Below are positions 17,935-50,678 of a DNA stretch of 64,000 bases, piece by piece (position 1 is the first letter of the stretch; each line of letters starts with the position of its first letter). The position numbers and the translations under genes were made by a program. Under the pieces are notes generated by a model. The model searched no databases and had not been told where the DNA came from. It saw only the letters and a program-made list of their open reading frames with translations. This stretch comes from a bacterium. GTDB taxonomy: Bacteria; SAR324; NAC60-12. The stretch spans positions 224,001-288,000 of the forward strand of contig CBDBHR010000028.1 of NCBI GenBank assembly GCA_965205865.1. The letters run 5' to 3'.

Positions 17935-18011
17935 GGGCCCATAGCTCAGTTGGTTAGAGCTGCCGACTCATAATCGGCCGGTCCCTGGTTCGAGTCCAGG
18001 TGGGCCCACCA
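17935..18011 (+). tRNA. ileX: tRNA-Ile2 (anticodon CAT, lysidine type)
   Basis: 77-nt cloverleaf GGGCCCA...TGGGCCC-ACCA; GACTCATAATC anticodon arm and overall sequence resemble Ile2 rather than Met tRNAs. Confidence 0.88.
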
Positions 18012-37661: not shown

Positions 37662-38158
37662 TTTTTTTCTCCATTATATGAGTGAATAGTGGCATTGTTC
37701 ATTAGAGCAGTATTATCAACAGATACCAATGACGTAAAGAAAAATTTGAAAAATTTCGATTTGAAGGGGTTGGATGGTTCAGGTGCCGGATAGATAACGA
37801 TAGTCGTGGCTGATTCGGTCTGGGAGGCACAGTCTCTTAGCAGTCATATTCTTCGCAAAATGGCAAGAGATCCAATGGTGTACATTTAATATTTAATTAA
37901 CGTAGATAAAAGTGTACTTCAAACTAAAGGGTTTCGCCAGGTGATTATATTTTATGGGAAGCGGTTTTGGTAGGACAGAGCGGCTTTGCGCAGTGCCGGA
38001 CTATTGACCAAAGCCAGAGAACGTCGCAGCGACATTTAATGCATTCAAACTCTTTTTGCAAAAAAGGGAAATCAGGGGTTGACATCATCATGCATTATAT
38101 ATTCCTGGAAGATTGTTTGGGGAAGAGTGGAAGTGGTATTTTGGACTTAAGTGCGCTT

Positions 38159-38290
38159 AGAACCTGTTTGAAAGTCATTTATTCTCTCCAGGAAAAGGTT
38201 CTTTCGACGATCCACCTTTTCGGTAGGACCTGAAAGCCCGTTCCTTGGAGGTTTAGAGTGATCTCAAGTTCACATTGAAATCGATTCCAT
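38159..38290 (-). mobile_element. Internally deleted right-end fragment of the same IS5, inverted
   Basis: Reverse complement of the IS right TIR joined to ~34273-34373 (RFQCELEITLNLQGTGFQVLPKRWIVERTFSW). Confidence 0.9.
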
Positions 38291-38850
38291 CTGCTAGATA
38301 CCCATACGGATGAAATGGCTGGAGTGACACAGTTCCTCTTAGACAATATGCCCAAAATGGATGACCGCGCGGCAAAATGGCTATCGGATGCAGTAGTACC
38401 GGGACCTTTCTTGACAAAGCCGCTAGATTGGTATGGCCCAAGCCAGCCAAGGACCGTTAAGCCCATACCTCGCTCAGAGTCTTCAATTAAGTTTGACGAG
38501 AAAAAAGAACGTGAGAACAATTACAAGAAATGGTCCGACAAATTTTCTGAGACGAAACCACATCGTTTTGTTGAAAAGCTGGGGAAGATACTGCACTCCA
38601 TTTTTCCCTCCACAAAAGTTCTCGCTCGCCTGGAACCGAACTGGCCGAATGGGAAAAGCATTGACTTTCTCATCCCATCCATAAAATAGCCTTCGCTTAT
38701 CAGCATTCAAATACACCTGATACCCGTATCTTGGAGGCTGTTAAATGGTGTGATGGAAACGGATACAGGCTTATCATGATTGACGGTCCCAACGCAGTAA
38801 CGGAAAGCTCTCTACGCTCGCGTCTCAGAGAAATGCTACTCGAACTATGA
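38291..38850 (+). pseudogene. 5'-truncated, frameshifted hypothetical gene, possibly with a degenerate restriction-endonuclease-like C-terminus
   Basis: ORF 38315-38689 continues in another frame (DFLIPS/KIAFAYQH...WCDGNGYRLIMI). Confidence 0.4.
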
Positions 38851-38896
38851 GCAGCTCTTTCAGGACTATCTGATTCCGCTAAAAGTGGGTCAAGCC

Positions 38897-40380
38897 GTGC
38901 GCCAGGAAAGCTGGCAAGAAATAGAGAGTGAAAGTCTCTTACTCGGTAAGGCAGTAACGACCCGCCGAGTCCCCGAGTCATGAGTGGCTATTCGCAAGGA
39001 TAGGCGCTAAGCGTTGACAGGGGAGAACATAGGTTCGGTATTGAGCTCCGAAATCATAGTTTCAGGTGCTGACCTTGTAGTCTGCTGGGGAAGGCAATAT
39101 CAACCGAAGGCGTTAGCGTGAGTCTCGACTGAGCCTGGCGGAGTCGAAGACCCGGCGCATGTGTGGAAGTTTCTTGATCGGAACCTGGGAGATCCTGAAG
39201 ACGACTGTCAACATTCTATTGGTAGTCGGATCGGGAAAATTAATAAATAACCCCGATATCTACGTCTTCAGGAAGTCGGACAAGTTCGTAGTAGCGTGAG
39301 CAGCCGACAAGGCTGTGGATTTTGGAGAGTGAAAGTCTCTCTGTCGTCAGTTTCCCATTCGGGCGACTAGCATATCCGGTGCGCTTAGCAGGTAACTGCT
39401 TTGCGTTCTGCCCGGAAGTAAAAGTCACCGTCTGCTTTGGACGAGAGTCCATAGTGGGAGCCAACAGGGTGGCGAGCAAACCTGGAGGCCTGAACATTAG
39501 TGAATGATTGCAGCTCCGAAAGAGACTTCCGTCGTGAATTGGCTTGACGGTGTGTTGCCCAACCGCCGACCCGCTCGCTACTCGGGGAAGGCCGAAGTTC
39601 CAAGGGAAGTAATGGGAACAGGCACCTTGGAGGGAGCCGGAGTATGGATCCAAGCATCCAGGGAAAGATCCACAGAGATAACGTCGGGAAGGGCCAACTT
39701 CCAGCAGGGACTCGCAATAACCTGCAAGGACCTACCGTATAGGGTAACACCGAAATCGGCAGGAGGATTTTGGTCTGGCGCATGAGTCCGTATGAGCGAT
39801 GAAGACCGGGTAACGCTGGTCGAGGGGATGCTTGGACATCTCCCTTTTGGAGGTAACACCTCTAAAAGGCAAAGGGGCTCTCGGTAAATGGCGGGCATTT
39901 CATGAACCACTGCCGAACTTGTGTCGGTCAAGAGTGTCACCACAAAGAATGTCGAGCTGGAGATCAAATCACTCACTCCAGGGGTGAATGCAGGCGAGTG
40001 CTTAAGCTTCGGATTGGGTGGGAAGGGTTTCTGGGGAAACGCTGTTGCTGCCAACCGGACTCGGGAAATCCGACCGTCCGGGATGAGAGGGGGGCTTGCG
40101 GAAACGTGATGCAGGGTCTGACGCCCTTTTGCCACGAAACCGGAAACGGGGGATACATTGGAAGTCGTTGACCTAAACATGCGCGCGCCGTATTTCTACC
40201 CGGCATGAAGCGGCGAACAATGAGATCATTTGTAGAGAGTAACAATGCAAAGGAAATCAACGGAGCCTGTGGAGCAAAGGGACTTGGCTGAGAGGAATTC
40301 TGCTTGCCCTCCTGTGTTCGGAACTCAGAGGCCGGTAAAATCAGAGAGCGGTTTAAGCAGGGTGCGCCAAACGGCAACGT
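38897..40380 (+). mobile_element. Outer group II intron, 3'-truncated (DI-DIII and start of DIV), interrupted by the inner intron
   Basis: GTGCG 5' end; GAGAGTGAAAGTCTC, GAGCTCCGAAA, GGGGAAGGC, GGAACCTGGGAGA, GGAAGTCGGA..GTAGTAGC|ATGAAGC..GAAC, GGAGC.AAGGG motifs; ends at SGLSRVRQTA, like a maturase N-terminus. Confidence 0.75.
39296..40204 (+). ncRNA. Inner ORF-less group II intron-like ribozyme (DI-DVI)
   Basis: GTGAG 5' end, second full set of DI-DIII motifs, short DIV without RT motifs, DV-like hairpin CCGGACTCGGGAAATCCGACCGTCCGG (40055-40081), DVI ending TTCTACCCGGC. Confidence 0.8.
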
Positions 40381-40467
40381 TTACCTGACCAGGAACGCGG
40401 ACAATCAGTACCCAAATCTCACTGATCTTCAAGAATGGGTCATGTCCGATATTGAAAGGTTTGTGGC

Positions 40468-40675
40468 ATGACTATGTTGAAAAAGAATCCCCTTAAAATC
40501 ACCCCTATCAAAGGTAGTCCGATGCTGCATTGGGTGGGCAAGAAGCCGTTGGACGTGGAGCGGTATTTCCAGCACAGTTATGCGAAACCCGTCGGCGTGG
40601 ACAATCCACCGGCCGAGTCGTCATACTTGGAATTTGTGAAAAGCGATTACAATCTGCTTTTTCATGGGGACACAG
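40468..40675 (+). pseudogene. N-terminal fragment of a type III Mod-like DNA methyltransferase
   Basis: KGSPMLHWVGKKPL...(frameshift FPAQL)...NLLFHGD, then truncated. Confidence 0.6.
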
Positions 40676-40869
40676 TGGTAAGCCCCCGGAGTTGTTACGA
40701 AAGGTTCCGGGTCAGTTCAGTTTTGGATGCTCTCAAGGGAAAAAATCATTTAAGGTATTGAAAATTGGTAAGCAGAAAATTAGATCGAGTGAAGAAACTG
40801 AAGAAATAATAGCTGGCATTCCCTGATATGAATATTCTGGTACTCTCCGGCGAAAGTGCGTAGATGCCC

Positions 40870-41262
40870 TCATTCACGACGGATTGGCATCAGTTTGACA
40901 TGCTCCTCCAGCCAGGAGAGAAGCTCCGCGAAGCGGAAGGAGTTGGTCTTGAACAGCTTCATAAAGTGATTATAGGCCTCGCGGTTATCGCAGTCGATGA
41001 AATGACTGTTCAGACGGAGGAAGGTATCGGTGGCGCCGAGAGCGGTACGTTTGTTACCGTCCACGAAAGGATGGTTCATAGCGAGACTCTCCATCAAGGC
41101 GGCAGCCTCTTCTATCAGTCCGTCGTAGTAACCCATCTGCGGGCGCAAGAGAGCGGATTCCAACGCTCCCATGTCACGAAGACCGGCGGCGCCACCTGTT
41201 TCTGAAAGCAAGGCGTCATGAATGGCCACGACTTCTTCGATAGTGGGGAAACTGCGGGTCAT
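40870..41262 (-). CDS. doc: Death-on-curing (Doc/Fic) toxin
   Basis: GLRDMGALESAL.RP and HPFVDGNKRT. Confidence 0.93.
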   Translation of the reverse strand: MTRSFPTIEEVVAIHDALLSETGGAAGLRDMGALESALLRPQMGYYDGLIEEAAALMESLAMNHPFVDGNKRTALGATDTFLRLNSHFIDCDNREAYNHFMKLFKTNSFRFAELLSWLEEHVKLMPIRRE

Positions 41263-41486
41263 TCAGCAAGCAATTCATAAAGCAGACGATTTTTCTCGAG
41301 GCTGGCCTGAAAGTGCGCCATCACCTCGGGGCGTACTTTCTCGCGGACCTTGTTTTCGATGTAGCCGCGCATGGCGTCTTCGAGGACTGCTTGAAAATGA
41401 CGGCCTTCCCGGCGGGCGATCGCTCGCATTTCCGACAACAACTCCGGCGAAGCCTGGCTCGAGAATTTTTCACGTGAAACATCCAT
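41259..41486 (-). CDS. Cognate antitoxin (ribbon-helix-helix-like)
   Basis: 75 aa, ATGA overlap with doc, C-terminal LYELLAE. Confidence 0.8.
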   Translation of the reverse strand: MDVSREKFSSQASPELLSEMRAIARREGRHFQAVLEDAMRGYIENKVREKVRPEVMAHFQASLEKNRLLYELLAE

Positions 41487-41550
41487 TACCGTACTCCTCT
41501 CTAATATGGCTCAATTATGGCTCTATGCGGTCACGGTTTCAAGATAAATC

Positions 41551-42562
41551 TTGATGGAAATTGATAAAAGGCCAACTTTGGAGGTTATGCCACGAATTCC
41601 TGCTTCAGCTCCTCCAGGATTCGGGGTAGTTGCTCACGGCTATCCGTCGGCATGGCGACGGCGATTTGTTGAAAAAGGAATAACAGGTCTTAATGATGAT
41701 CCGCGGCCCGGCAGGACACGCATTTATGGAGCGGATAAAATCGAAGAGATTGTGAAGAAAACCATTGAAGAGAAGCCTGAGGACCGTACCCATTGGAGCA
41801 CGCGATCGATGGCCAAGGCAGTTGGCGTAGGCAAGACAACCGTCGCTAAAGTATGGAAGGCCCATCGCCTCGAGCCTCATCTGGAAAAAACATTTAAGTT
41901 GTCGCATGATAAGCATTTCACTGCGAAACTGAAAGATGTCATCGGCTTGTACATGAATCCTCCTGAGAAAGCGCTGGTCTTGAGCGTCGATGAGAAATCA
42001 CAAATCCAGGCACTCGATCGCACCCAGCCAGGTCTGCCACTGAAACCAGGACGCAATGGCACCAGAACTCATGATTATATCCGTCATGGCACCTGCTGTC
42101 TGTTTACTGCTTTGAATACGCAGACAGGGGAAGTGCTCGCTCGCTGTGAAAAACGGCACCGACACCAAGAGTATCTGCGCTTCCTGCGTCTTATTGACAA
42201 GACTACCTCGAAGCAACTGCAGTTACACTTGATCCTGGACAATTACGCCACCCACAAACATCTTAATATGAAAGAATGGCTCAAAAAACACCCGCGATTT
42301 CACCCGCATTTCATTCCTACTTCCTCCTCATGGCTGAACATGGTGGAACGTTTTTTTGGCAAGATCACTGCAGAACGGATTCGACGAGGCGCCTTCAAAA
42401 GCGTGCTCGAGTTGACCGAAGCCATCCATAGTTACATCGAGACACACAATCGCAACCCAAAACCCTATGTCCGGACTAAAACTGCCGAAGAAATTATCAA
42501 CAAACTCAAACCGGTCTATCAAATGACCAAAATTACAATGTATTAACCGAGCAATACACTAG
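41551..42562 (+). mobile_element. IS630-family element, 5' end degenerate
   Basis: Transposase motifs THWSTR, VDEKSQIQAL, THDYIRHGT, LDNYATH, SWLNMVERFF; right end ATACACTAG. Confidence 0.9.
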
Positions 42563-42659
42563 TACTTTTTAAAGTTGTAATCATAATCTGACTAGTATAC
42601 TTTTCGGATAATGTACAGGGGACTCACACCCCATGAGTTCATGCCCATGCCGGGCACAC
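42563..42659 (-). mobile_element. 5' remnant of a group IIC-attC intron
   Basis: Minus strand TTGT|GTGTGCCCGGCATGGGCATGAACTCATGGGGTGTGAGTCCCCTG, inserted antisense into an attC-like hairpin; cut by IS630. Confidence 0.8.
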
Positions 42660-42710
42660 ACAAGGCATTGGAGGTGACGCTTAACAGCGCACCTCAGCTT
42701 CATGCTGCTT
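42660..42710 (+). repeat. attC-like site (intron target)
   Basis: ACAAGGC-ATTG-GAGGTG(A)CGCT-TAAC-AGCGCACCTC hairpin with an extrahelical base; R' box degenerate. Confidence 0.65.
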
Positions 42711-42781
42711 TATGAATCACACTTTCTTCCTCAAAATATAAAAAATCAATTCAATCCGGAGAAAAAGCTCTACAAGAAGGG

Positions 42782-42832
42782 TTGACATATTTTAACCATG
42801 AACTATAATGACTCATATAATTAATATGGTTA
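42782..42832 (+). promoter_or_regulatory. Sigma70 promoter with palindromic operator for the TA operon
   Basis: TTGACA-N16-TATAAT; overlapping TAACCAT/ATGGTTA inverted repeat. Confidence 0.7.
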
Positions 42833-42846
42833 TACAGGAGAGCACT

Positions 42847-43131
42847 ATGGAAAGAGTAATTGATGTGACAACAGCACGCAGACAACTGGGTACCCTATTA
42901 GATGAAGTCTTTTATAAAGGAGAAATTATAACAATAGAAAGGAAAGGGAAGCCTCTCGCTCAGATCATCCCATTTAAAGAGGCCGCTTCTCACTTATCTT
43001 CTGAACAGAAAGAACTTCTTGAGGAACTTCACAGTTTGCCTACGATCCCAACAGCTCAAGATCCAACTACGATTTTAAGAAAAATTCGTAAACAGAAGAG
43101 AATTCAAGCAAATGTGGACTATGGAAAATGA
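42847..43131 (+). CDS. Phd/YefM family antitoxin
   Basis: VTTARRQLGTLLDEV...IERKGKPLA. Confidence 0.88.
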   Translation: MERVIDVTTARRQLGTLLDEVFYKGEIITIERKGKPLAQIIPFKEAASHLSSEQKELLEELHSLPTIPTAQDPTTILRKIRKQKRIQANVDYGK

Positions 43132-43585
43132 TCGTTACGTTTTGGATGCGAACATTTTTTTAGAATACATCTATGGCAGAGCCTTGAAGGATCATGCTAA
43201 AAAAATCCTACAAGATGCCATATTAAAAAAGATACAAGTTCTTGTTCCAAGCTTATTATTGGATGAAATCACAGAGGTTCTTTGCAGTAATTTAGACAAT
43301 CTTAAAGAAGTGAAACACCAGAATATATAGAAAAACTCTCAAAACAAGGAGCCTTGAAGATTATTGTTCCCAATACTGGAGTACGAATGAAAGCCATTGA
43401 AATTGCGAGGACAGGAAATCCTAAAAGTGGCTATCCGGAATTGACTGATTCTTTATACCATGCTTTGGCAATTATTAAATAATGCCGTATTTATCACAAA
43501 TGATATAAAGCATATTAGTAAGGTAAAGCAGTTTAGTCATATCAAGGAACTTTCAAAATATGGCAATATTGCTGAGAAATCATGA
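43121..43585 (+). pseudogene. PIN/VapC toxin, disrupted
   Basis: YVLDANIF N-terminus; frameshift near 43320; DSLYHALA followed by another break near 43480. Confidence 0.8.
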
Positions 43586-44801: not shown

Positions 44802-45166
44802 AGTCCCGGAGGGACGAAAGGGAATAGCCCAGCGATTCATCGCTGGGAAAGGCCCCCTCCTCCTCCTCAGCTAGTCCCGGAGGGACGAAAGGGAATAGCC
44901 CAGCAATTCATCGCTGGGAAAGGCCCCCCTCCTCAGCTAGTCCCGGAGGGACGACACTTCTTCGATCTTTCGAGTTACTCCCATAAGGAAAAAGGTGCTT
45001 TTTGATTTCAGGAGTCATCCTCTCAATTCGGATTTTTGTGCTAAAGACACAATGAAGATGATTGCTGACGTAGGAATGGACATGAAACCTCATTGTTGTG
45101 TCGTCCCTCCGGGACTTTGAAGGAGACTGTCTTTTGTTCCCAGCTTCCTTTCGTCCCTCCGGGATT
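44802..45166. mobile_element. REP cluster flanking an IS200/RAYT-like TnpA remnant
   Basis: AGTCCCGGAGGGACGA at 44802, 44873 and 44939 with CCCAGCGATTCATCGCTGGG hairpins; inverted copies near 45100 and 45150; minus-strand HSYVSNHLHCVFSTK..PEIKKHLFPY. Confidence 0.78.
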
Positions 45167-50130: not shown

Positions 50131-50494
50131 CTCGAGTCGCTTGATTAAACCAACGTTAGTTCGAAGTAACTGCCGCATTCCGCTGGTCTGCTCGGCTTGG
50201 TGAGCGAAAGACGACGCGTGCGACGCGATTCGTATTGCCATGTTCAAAGTTACCTCAGCCAAGCGCGTGTTTTAACAAAACTGGCTTTTATCCGGTAAAC
50301 CTCGTAGAAAAGTTTTCGAGAAAAAAGTTGACAAATTTTCAAATTTTTAGTATTCAGATAGGTAATTCACAATTCTGGAGGTTGCGGTTCAATGCAATTC
50401 GCCAGGGAACATCATCGTTCTTTTGTGAAAATATAAGGAAAGGAACGGCACTCCCCTGTCGCCGATTCTAATCTTTTTTCTCTTTGATATAGTT

Positions 50495-50583
50495 GTTCGT
50501 TGGGGGTGGAAAAGCCACTGGACTTTTTCTGAGAAAAACCCTTGGAACCTGAACTGGGTAATACCAGCGTAGGAAATGCGAAG
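50495..50583 (+). promoter_or_regulatory. TPP riboswitch
   Basis: GGGGTG...CTGAGA..AACCCTT.GAACCTGA.CTGGGTAATACCAGCGTAGGAA upstream of thiB. Confidence 0.93.
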
Positions 50584-50678
50584 GTACATTCGATCTCGAA
50601 TCAATCCCAAGTCGTTTCTTCCACGTCGTTTCTCCCCCTCCGAATATTTTCCTGATCCAATCAATTCGGAGTAGTCTC

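Follow-up and report, generated by a model that had tools for sequence, protein, structure and literature searches.

We analysed a stretch of 64,000 nucleotides (nt), here called the window, which corresponds to positions 224001 to 288000 of contig C28 (C28:224001-288000) in a bacterial genome of 4.74 Mb and 30 contigs. The window harbours a group II intron, O, which is interrupted by a second element, X, an inner group II-like intron of 908 nt without an open reading frame (ORF). Both are located on the forward strand (+), and positions are those of the window unless a contig is named.

The outer intron O and its insert X

The 5′ part of O (38897-39296, +) comprises domain I, the domain II hairpin and the 5′ half of the domain III hairpin, and ends with the intron-binding site 1 (IBS1) for X. 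The 3′ part (40205-40382, +) comprises the 3′ half of the domain III hairpin, followed by domain IV with the start of the reverse transcriptase (RT) ORF. Domain I of O matches the Rfam family RF02005 (D1D4-6) at 38931-39153 with 163 bits (E 3e-48), and the domain II hairpin is found at about 39197-39270. The next hairpin folds with an energy that is not significant, and we infer its assignment to domain III. In domain IV of the window copy, the RT ORF starts with an ATG at 40245 and continues for ~44 codons to the ORF-deletion junction at about 40375.

O is present in ~40 copies in the genome, which are 96-98% identical to each other. The search with blastn revealed 46 matches to O, fragments counted, and the 399 nt at its 5′ end (38897-39295) have 41 matches with 89-100% identity. 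Full-length copies of O encode an RT/maturase of 470 amino acids (aa), starting with MQRKSTEPVEQRD, and several of the eleven RVT_1 matches in the genome (ten above cut-off) belong to O. The majority of the copies are ORF-deleted derivatives of ~700 nt, in which ...AACGTTTGAGCGTCTGAC comes directly after the first ~44 codons, and a near-canonical domain V (GAGCCGGATGCG..., ~31 bits with RF00029) and domain VI follow. Copies of O other than the one in the window run on as GAGCGTCTGAC...GAGCCGGATGCG... The window copy is of the ORF-deleted type and ends at 40382 after CAACGTTT, where unrelated DNA begins, and possesses neither domain V nor domain VI. Because these two domains are missing, the window copy cannot work as an intron and is a dead end for O.

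The sequence GGGTCAAGCC (38887-38896, +) represents the 5′ exon or homing-site motif of O, for which the consensus in other copies is GGGGTCAGGCY; this motif precedes nearly all O copies. A loop of O at 39077-39085 (+), homologous to the guide loop of X described below, reads AGUCUG in the window copy, where it is mutated, and GGUCUG in other copies. Read by eye, the GGUCUG loop could pair with the flank CAGGCY. The homing-site motif occurs 145 times in the genome. At sites free of O, the motif forms the start of two dispersed repeat families (GGGGTCAGGCCTTTGATTA... and GGGGTCAGGCTTGCAAGTTTGCAAA...), and the 3′ end of O is followed by TTTGATTA... As the homing site of O is the end of dispersed repeats, three layers are nested, namely the repeat, O and X.

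X (39297-40204, +) starts with TGAGCAGCC, ends with CTACCCGGC, and interrupts the domain III hairpin of O. Empty O sites read continuously as GTAGTAGCG|ATGAAGC, with ...GGAAGTCGGACAAGTTCGTAGTAGCGATGAAGC... and GTAGTAGCGATGAAGC, and the four occupied copies read ...GTAGTAGC GTGAGCAGCC...CTACCCGGC ATGAAGC, i.e. GTAGTAGC-GTGAGC...CCCGGC-ATGAAGC. Occupied and empty copies differ by exactly 908 nt, which is the net insertion in O. Removal of X restores the sequence of O, as in a twintron, and 33 of 40 copies are empty and continuous across the site. An earlier note on this DNA had proposed that a second element splits a motif of the outer intron and that its removal restores continuity, and the junctions of the empty and occupied copies bear this out. 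The same note placed the inner intron at 39296-40204, with ~910 nt. Its place and 3′ end were correct, but the 5′ limit was not, as the G at 39296 is assignable to O, which leaves the target unchanged.

Several observations agree on 39297-40204 as the limits of X, with UGAGC as its predicted first bases, and X was placed there because of this agreement. In addition to the empty sites, contigs from public sequencing runs contain the joint 39296->40205, skipping 908 nt. At locus L067 two family members stand in tandem with the joint ...CCCAGT|TGAGCAGCC, and the site of locus L048, GGGACA|GTGAGC...CCCAGT|GCCGGG, reads uninterrupted as GGGACAGGCCGGG in a paralogous host. The helix formed by the guide loop and the 5′ flank ends on the base equivalent to 39296 in 54 of 68 relatives, and in more distant relatives this position can hold any of the four bases, in covariation with the first base of the guide loop.

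The 909-nt stretch reported in the note has four copies in the genome, three of them identical and one with a single-base indel. All four full X copies are inserted at the same point of O, and the sequences outside O are unrelated, which means that they represent four different loci. A census of the domain III site of O by motif search (n=40) gave 33 empty sites, four with X, and three with a second ORF-less intron. The target AGTAGCG occurs 267 times in the genome and 36 of these are in domain III of O. All four X copies are found in O, for which the chance under random choice is ~3e-4.

The second ORF-less intron, type B, is unrelated to X, has ~905 nt, starts with GTGCGC, and possesses a canonical domain V (RF00029, 44 bits). 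It is inserted in the domain III loop of O in three of 40 copies, 3 nt upstream of the X site (after GTAGT), at C28:326614-327520, C29:729061-728160 (-) and C30:654281-655123. In the C30 copy (C30:654255), a deletion at a short GCGGCG repeat has joined domain VI of type B to O. A further O copy, at C28:30020-30900 (L013/L006), is scrambled and contains duplicated domain IV pieces; another GTGCGC... start is inserted 19 nt after its domain III site, and a 43-nt piece of X (positions 558-600, 91%) is also present there. An X-like 5′ fragment of 197 nt with 96% identity is found at a non-intron site (C29:45404-45599, L005), flanked by ...CATCCCCTGCAT, which suggests an older ectopic insertion that was later truncated.

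Guide pairing and relatives of X

X possesses a hairpin (39565-39592, +) with the predicted exon-binding site 1 (EBS1), CGCTACT at 39576-39582. Its partner, the IBS1 for X (AGTAGCG, 39290-39296, +), is located in the apical part of the domain III hairpin of O. In the window, CGCUACU and AGUAGCG form seven Watson-Crick base pairs (bp). The complementarity of the loop GCTACT (39577-39582) with AGTAGC (39290-39295), pointed out in the earlier note, is therefore confirmed and is extended to 7 bp with the G at 39296. The relatives all have a hairpin GCCGACC-loop-GGGGAAGGC whose loop is complementary to the bases immediately 5′ of the element; loop/flank pairs include UUUCCU/AGGGAA, UUCGCU/AGCGAA, UUCACU/AGUGAA, GAUCCU/GGGAUC, and GAAUGA/UCAUUC.

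The EBS1 loop covaries with the 5′ flank. The mean longest helix among 68 distinct flank/loop pairs was 7.40 bp, compared with 5.12 +/- 0.14 bp (maximum 5.54) when flanks were shuffled among units (200 shuffles), although the units are related to each other and the shuffle overstates their independence. Six units, whose loop was not matched by the search pattern, were dropped from this test. The register of the helix is fixed, with the same end base in the 54 of 68 pairs mentioned above. The second guide pairing that had been suggested was not supported. TGAATT (39535-39540) belongs to a hairpin at 39529-39550 (+) with a conserved GAAGYYG-type loop, and had been read as exon-binding site 2 (EBS2), pairing with AGTTCG. 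This pairing is possible but at chance level; with G-U pairs allowed, shuffled flanks form a helix of at least 6 bp with the TGAATT loop in 31% and of at least 7 bp in 11%. No covariation was detected between the GAAGYYG loop and the flanks (observed 4.41, shuffled 4.32 +/- 0.07).

An exact scan with the first 20 nt of X revealed 31 loci in species genomes, which span Acidobacteriota, Bradyrhizobium (ten loci in one genome), other Alphaproteobacteria, Deltaproteobacteria, Myxococcota, and Phycisphaerales. Several loci of the Bradyrhizobium genome are 98-100% identical. Seventeen out of the 31 loci correspond to complete units of 909-920 nt, 60-63% identical to X. Their colinearity with X extends to the last base, and the terminus is shared, reading ...GCGCGCCCGATTTCTATCCCAGT in the relatives and ...GCGCGCCGTATTTCTACCCGGC in X. 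Therefore, X is a complete member of the family and not a fragment. X as a 3′-truncated or recombinant 5′ module, a reading prompted by the absent domain V match, a GGAAGTCG repeat, and the absence of a G at the junction, was rejected on the grounds of this colinearity and of the common ...GCGCGCCNGNWTTCTAYCCNNY terminus. X was not detected in a sample of 60 related genomes of the same genus, family, order, and class (0/60), many of which are incomplete. Among metagenome contigs, at least 121 stretches contain the domain V-like motif. Eighty loci among these were fetched, and a profile built from the alignment revealed ~40 near full-length units in them, with ~860-930 nt aligned and no inserted ORF.

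Among the 31 species-genome loci, at least 17 have Rfam domains of a host intron next to the element, with domain I of the D1D4-4, D1D4-2, or D1D4-6 type upstream; RF00029 was found downstream in four loci. The commonest flank, ...GUAGUA(C/G)CG(C/A)UGAAGCCGGGUAACGCCGGUGGAGGGAAG|, corresponds to domain III of host introns, and its first half is nearly the same as the target motif of X in O. No empty version of the Bradyrhizobium domain III target was found, as the three host copies that reach the site are all occupied. The metagenome units were classified by reading the flanks by eye, among the matches listed. Eight are inserted in the tetraloop of a canonical host domain V (GAGCCGGAUGGUGGAA|X|AUCU..GUCCGG), three just 3′ of the host domain V, five in the host domain III, and one in an RT ORF (LDADVRGFFDAID), and two follow another family member in tandem. 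Other units occupy sites that were not assigned to an intron part, some of them after simple hairpins. Many homologues are thus found inside group II introns, as the earlier note would lead one to expect, but not all of them at one site.

Fold and coding capacity of X

RNAalifold on ten family members predicted 241 pairs, 98 of them with compensatory changes, and six domains in the order D1-D6. Domain I of X (39304-39687, +; alignment columns 9-408) has ~385 nt and a weak match to RF02003 (D1D4-4) at 39323-39499 (33.2 bits, below the gathering score of 49). In the relatives, domain I matches D1D4-4 at 47-54 bits, most of them at or above this gathering score. Domain II (39688-39779, +) is followed by domain III (39784-39880, +), which forms a three-way junction and contains GTATGAGCGATGAAG; this deviates from the target motif at two positions, both within IBS1. 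It is speculation that these mismatches would spare X from self-insertion. Domain IV (39882-40050, +) lacks an ORF. The domain V-like hairpin (40055-40081, +) has 27 nt; its lower helix of 6 bp and its upper helix of 4-5 bp, the latter supported by compensatory changes, are separated by a 2-nt bulge (CC) in the 3′ strand, and the loop reads GAAAU. Nowhere else is the family so well conserved, with 87% identity here between X and its relatives, compared with ~62% overall. A branched domain VI-like domain of about 113 nt (40089-40201, +) follows.

Four public sequencing runs, two RNA-library runs and two DNA runs, were used for the splicing check, which considered their contigs and not the depth figures. 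The RNA-library contigs, from two studies, extend over X and across its junction with O, i.e. they are unspliced. In contigs of the two DNA runs, 39816 is connected directly to 40050, so that 233 nt, corresponding to domain IV and the 3′ portion of domain III, are missing; this may represent a shorter variant or a related element. The domain V region (40038-40091) is many times deeper than the rest of X in all four runs; therefore, other elements in those samples share this region.

X does not possess an intron-encoded protein. An ORF of 89 aa (39902-40171) was considered as an HNH or RT remnant and was rejected, as it has no Pfam match. No RT-bearing member of the X family was found among ~70 units (matches listed). 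The homologues were also checked for an RT ORF of which X could be a simple deletion derivative, and none was present in the 17 full units (909-920 nt) or the ~40 metagenome units (~860-930 nt) among the matches listed. Long ORFs upstream of the domain V motif at four metagenome loci were discarded as candidates for an RT of the family, since they belong to host introns and end ~20-40 nt before the X-type unit. The remaining long ORFs near metagenome units are unrelated genes. A stop-free frame of 200 aa is found antisense to X (39578-40180, -), and frames of 144-276 codons are present in all 18 family units examined. The 200-aa frame showed no Pfam match and no codon periodicity (0.57/0.58/0.59), and these antisense frames are most likely a by-product of the purine-rich sense strand.

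Proposed mobility of X and comparison with known introns

We consider it probable that X is a non-autonomous, ORF-less member of a divergent group II-type family, which is guided by EBS1 to domain III of O and is mobilised in trans. The core of the interpretation given in the earlier note is supported, with the exception of EBS2 and of the borrowed maturase, which is a proposal. In the proposed mechanism, the RNA of X would be excised and would then reverse-splice into the domain III loop of single DNA copies of O, guided by the 7-bp helix. A resident RT/maturase would copy it in trans, most simply the protein of O or of another resident intron; RT-encoding introns, full-length O among them, occur in the same genome. 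Inside O, X would be co-transcribed and harmless to host genes, with ~33 further empty targets, and its splicing would restore the domain III hairpin of O. Repeated landing in a conserved motif of autonomous introns had also been proposed. The four copies in domain III of O agree with repeated landing, but their hosts are ORF-deleted and not autonomous.

The divergence of the copies fits this proposal. Pairwise comparison of the three complete X-bearing copies gave 11, 11, and 6 differences over the 577 positions of their O parts, and none over the 909 of X. If 11 differences were evenly spread over 1486 nt, the chance that all of them fall in O would be ~3e-5. Since the host O copies diverged while the X copies are identical, X entered O copies that had already diverged, and X is younger than its O hosts. 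Close to the insertion, all hosts share the same 140 nt on the 5′ side of X; on its 3′ side they are polymorphic at distances of 26 and 36 nt, and the four hosts show three combinations of these variants. This pattern argues against movement of O and X as a composite and leaves gene conversion only with very short tracts.

Several observations weigh against the trans-mobilisation of X as a functional intron. Canonical group II introns have the termini 5′-GUGYG ... AY-3′, and their domain V is a ~34-nt hairpin with an AGC (or CGC) triad, a 2-nt bulge, and a GNRA loop. X starts with UGAGC instead of GUGYG and ends with GC instead of AY; its relatives start with GGAGC, GUAGC, or UGAGC and mostly end with AC or GU. 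The domain V-like hairpin of X has AAC at the position of AGC, the bases below are unpaired, and only six paired bases are found below the bulge. RF00029 (domains V-VI) has no match at E<=10 in 38000-43500, nor in 39900-40260 alone. Because domain V and both ends are atypical, the catalytic competence of X is presumed rather than shown. The joint that lacks X (39296->40205) is the only one of its kind in the runs; it was also present in a DNA run and equals the empty O copies, and thus gives no evidence of splicing. X has no detectable sequence similarity to the RT-encoding introns of this genome (blastn with word size 7; nhmmer profile). The comparison therefore offers no lead to a protein that would serve X, if it needs one. 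The X-bearing O hosts, four in all, are ORF-deleted and not RT-bearing. This preference is not significant, with 4/4 hosts among ~22/40 sites of that kind. Finally, gene conversion with very short tracts between 98%-identical O copies would still be compatible with the data.

An alternative explanation is that X is catalytically dead and was inserted once in a single O copy, from which it spread to the three others by homologous recombination or gene conversion. The 96-98% identity of the O copies provides ample homology for such a spread, no host differs in the 140 nt 5′ of X, and X possesses neither the canonical domain V triad nor a GUGYG start. Deletions by recombination do occur in these nests, as in the type B intron fused to O at GCGGCG (C30:654255). 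However, the polymorphisms 26 and 36 nt 3′ of X, with their three combinations in four hosts, require that conversion tracts end within ~25 nt, and neither the family-wide covariation of EBS1 and flank at many unrelated sites nor the near-identical multi-copy relatives at different target sequences would be explained. We regard this origin as unlikely. Even less credit is given to a composite of O and X that moves as one unit by retrohoming of O, with X as a passenger in the domain III loop, which seems very improbable. All four copies are located at homing sites of the O type (GGGGTCAGGCY), and mobility of composite twintrons has been considered possible (PMC2882425). Nonetheless, a recent composite should be uniformly similar, whereas the hosts differ at 6-12 of 577 sites with none of 909 in X, and the window copy of O possesses ~8 private changes within its 5′ 399 nt.

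A protein-independent lifestyle, similar to that of the HYER ribozymes (Liu et al. 2024), is also improbable for X, if not to the degree of the composite. X would then be a group II-derived ribozyme that cleaves or integrates into DNA via its loop of 7-9 nt, and the nesting in introns would reflect tolerated sites. HYER and X are both ORF-less, group II-derived, and multi-copy, and HYERs are described as cleaving DNA and recognising their targets via ~7 nt (PMC11754743). The ORF-less state of the whole X family, its atypical catalytic hallmarks, the single long guide helix without EBS2 covariation, and the good share of relatives at non-intron sites, some of them after hairpins, would fit such a lifestyle. 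In contrast to HYERs, described in the same source as compact class IIC elements of 0.4-0.6 kb (PMC11754743), X has 908 nt, with a ~385-nt domain I of the D1D4-4 type and large domains IV and VI. The precise junctions with a fixed register are those that full reverse splicing would give, which is the step assumed for X as a trans-mobilised intron.

The wider view is more tentative, and we hold it to be possible but doubtful. X would represent a distinct, phylum-spanning ribozyme lineage without a protein or canonical signatures, largely a hyperparasite of mobile introns, with guides tuned to domain III, the domain V tetraloop, the joint of domains V and VI, and RT genes. It would depend on a host protein or on none, and would be unseen by surveys based on domain V or RT.

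Nesting of mobile introns in Methanosarcina acetivorans was reportedly described by Dai and Zimmerly in 2003, with intron ORFs as the targets, to judge by the title. Twintrons are known in bacteria, and nested homing is known in Methanosarcina, according to a review (PMC4424553). In the work of Mohr et al. (2010) on Thermosynechococcus elongatus, ORF-less TeI3 introns are inserted in TeI4 introns and are mobilised by the protein of the outer intron, with trans-mobilisation shown experimentally (PMC2882425). Similar to X and O, several copies of an ORF-less intron occupy a single conserved site of a second mobile intron, with good EBS/IBS pairing and with RT-encoding introns present to act in trans. 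The inner copies are likewise identical and the outer ones diverged, which was read there as recent independent insertions. However, TeI3 is described there as a close relative (ORF-deletion derivative) of the outer family, located in domain IV between two ATGs, whereas X is unrelated to O and located in the domain III hairpin. No closely related RT-encoding intron was found for X in the same genome, as there is for TeI3, and the 5′ end, domain V, and domain VI of X are also non-canonical.

For M. acetivorans, the review describes repeated site-specific homing of group II introns, ORF-less ones included, into group II introns, with nests as "perpetual homing sites" without host genes, in which recombination deletions occur (PMC4424553). 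X differs in being bacterial, in belonging to a family that is wholly ORF-less, and in having the domain III loop as its target; the relatives use domain III, the domain V loop, the joint of domains V and VI, and the RT ORF. Compared with canonical bacterial group II introns, X shares the order of the six domains, the EBS1-IBS1 guide, a domain I motif of the GUGAAAGUC type, and a domain V with a 2-nt 3′ bulge and a GNRA-like loop. It departs from them in its UGAGC start (GGAGC/GUAGC in relatives), the 27-nt domain V with AAC, the missing RF00029 match, the ~113-nt domain VI, and the absence of an ORF and of EBS2 covariation. The principle of an ORF-less intron homing into another intron is thus already published for Thermosynechococcus and Methanosarcina (PMC2882425, PMC4424553). 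The X family and its targets look new. The literature search found no description of the family, but most subscription journals lie outside its scope, and novelty is not established.

The survey of Miura et al. (2022) finds bacterial group II introns via RF00029 (PMC8919778), and a blind spot of surveys based on domain V or RT is named in the review cited above (PMC4424553). The X family, ORF-less and without an RF00029 match in the window, is the type of element that such surveys miss. Its non-canonical 5′ end, domain V, and domain VI, together with the lack of an ORF, hide it from these pipelines. Nonetheless, it is abundant, as shown by the 31 species-genome loci and the metagenome stretches, of which there are at least 121. 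If X is active, it follows that AAC in place of the triad and a first base other than G are compatible with the function of a group II-type ribozyme, and that selfish introns can specialise on conserved RNA motifs of other introns. The single guide of 7-9 nt with a fixed register would then be a compact natural model for retargeting. If X is inactive, some other mechanism of transposition would have to account for the covariation and the identity of multiple copies, and this too would be of interest.

The DNA that follows the truncation of O (40383-40761) has an 87%-identical paralogue on contig C3. It contains an ORF fragment of 97 aa (40468-40761) just past the truncation, which starts with LHWVGKKPL and presumably recalls DNA methyltransferases. 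Further downstream, small gene pairs are found among 40870-41486 (-), 41551-42546 (+), and 42808-43330 (+), including an ORF of 130 aa with HPFVDGNKRT that is preceded by one of 75 aa, and a pair of 107 aa and 72 aa. By eye, we take these pairs to resemble toxin-antitoxin modules, HPFVDGNKRT presumably being a Doc/Fic motif. An ORF of 331 aa in the same region (40870-43330) is assumed, by eye, to resemble a transposase. Elsewhere in the window, a tRNA (17935-18008, +), two Acido-Lenti-1 RNAs in tandem (44802-44847 and 44873-44918, -), and a TPP riboswitch (50492-50593, +) were found above the Rfam gathering score.

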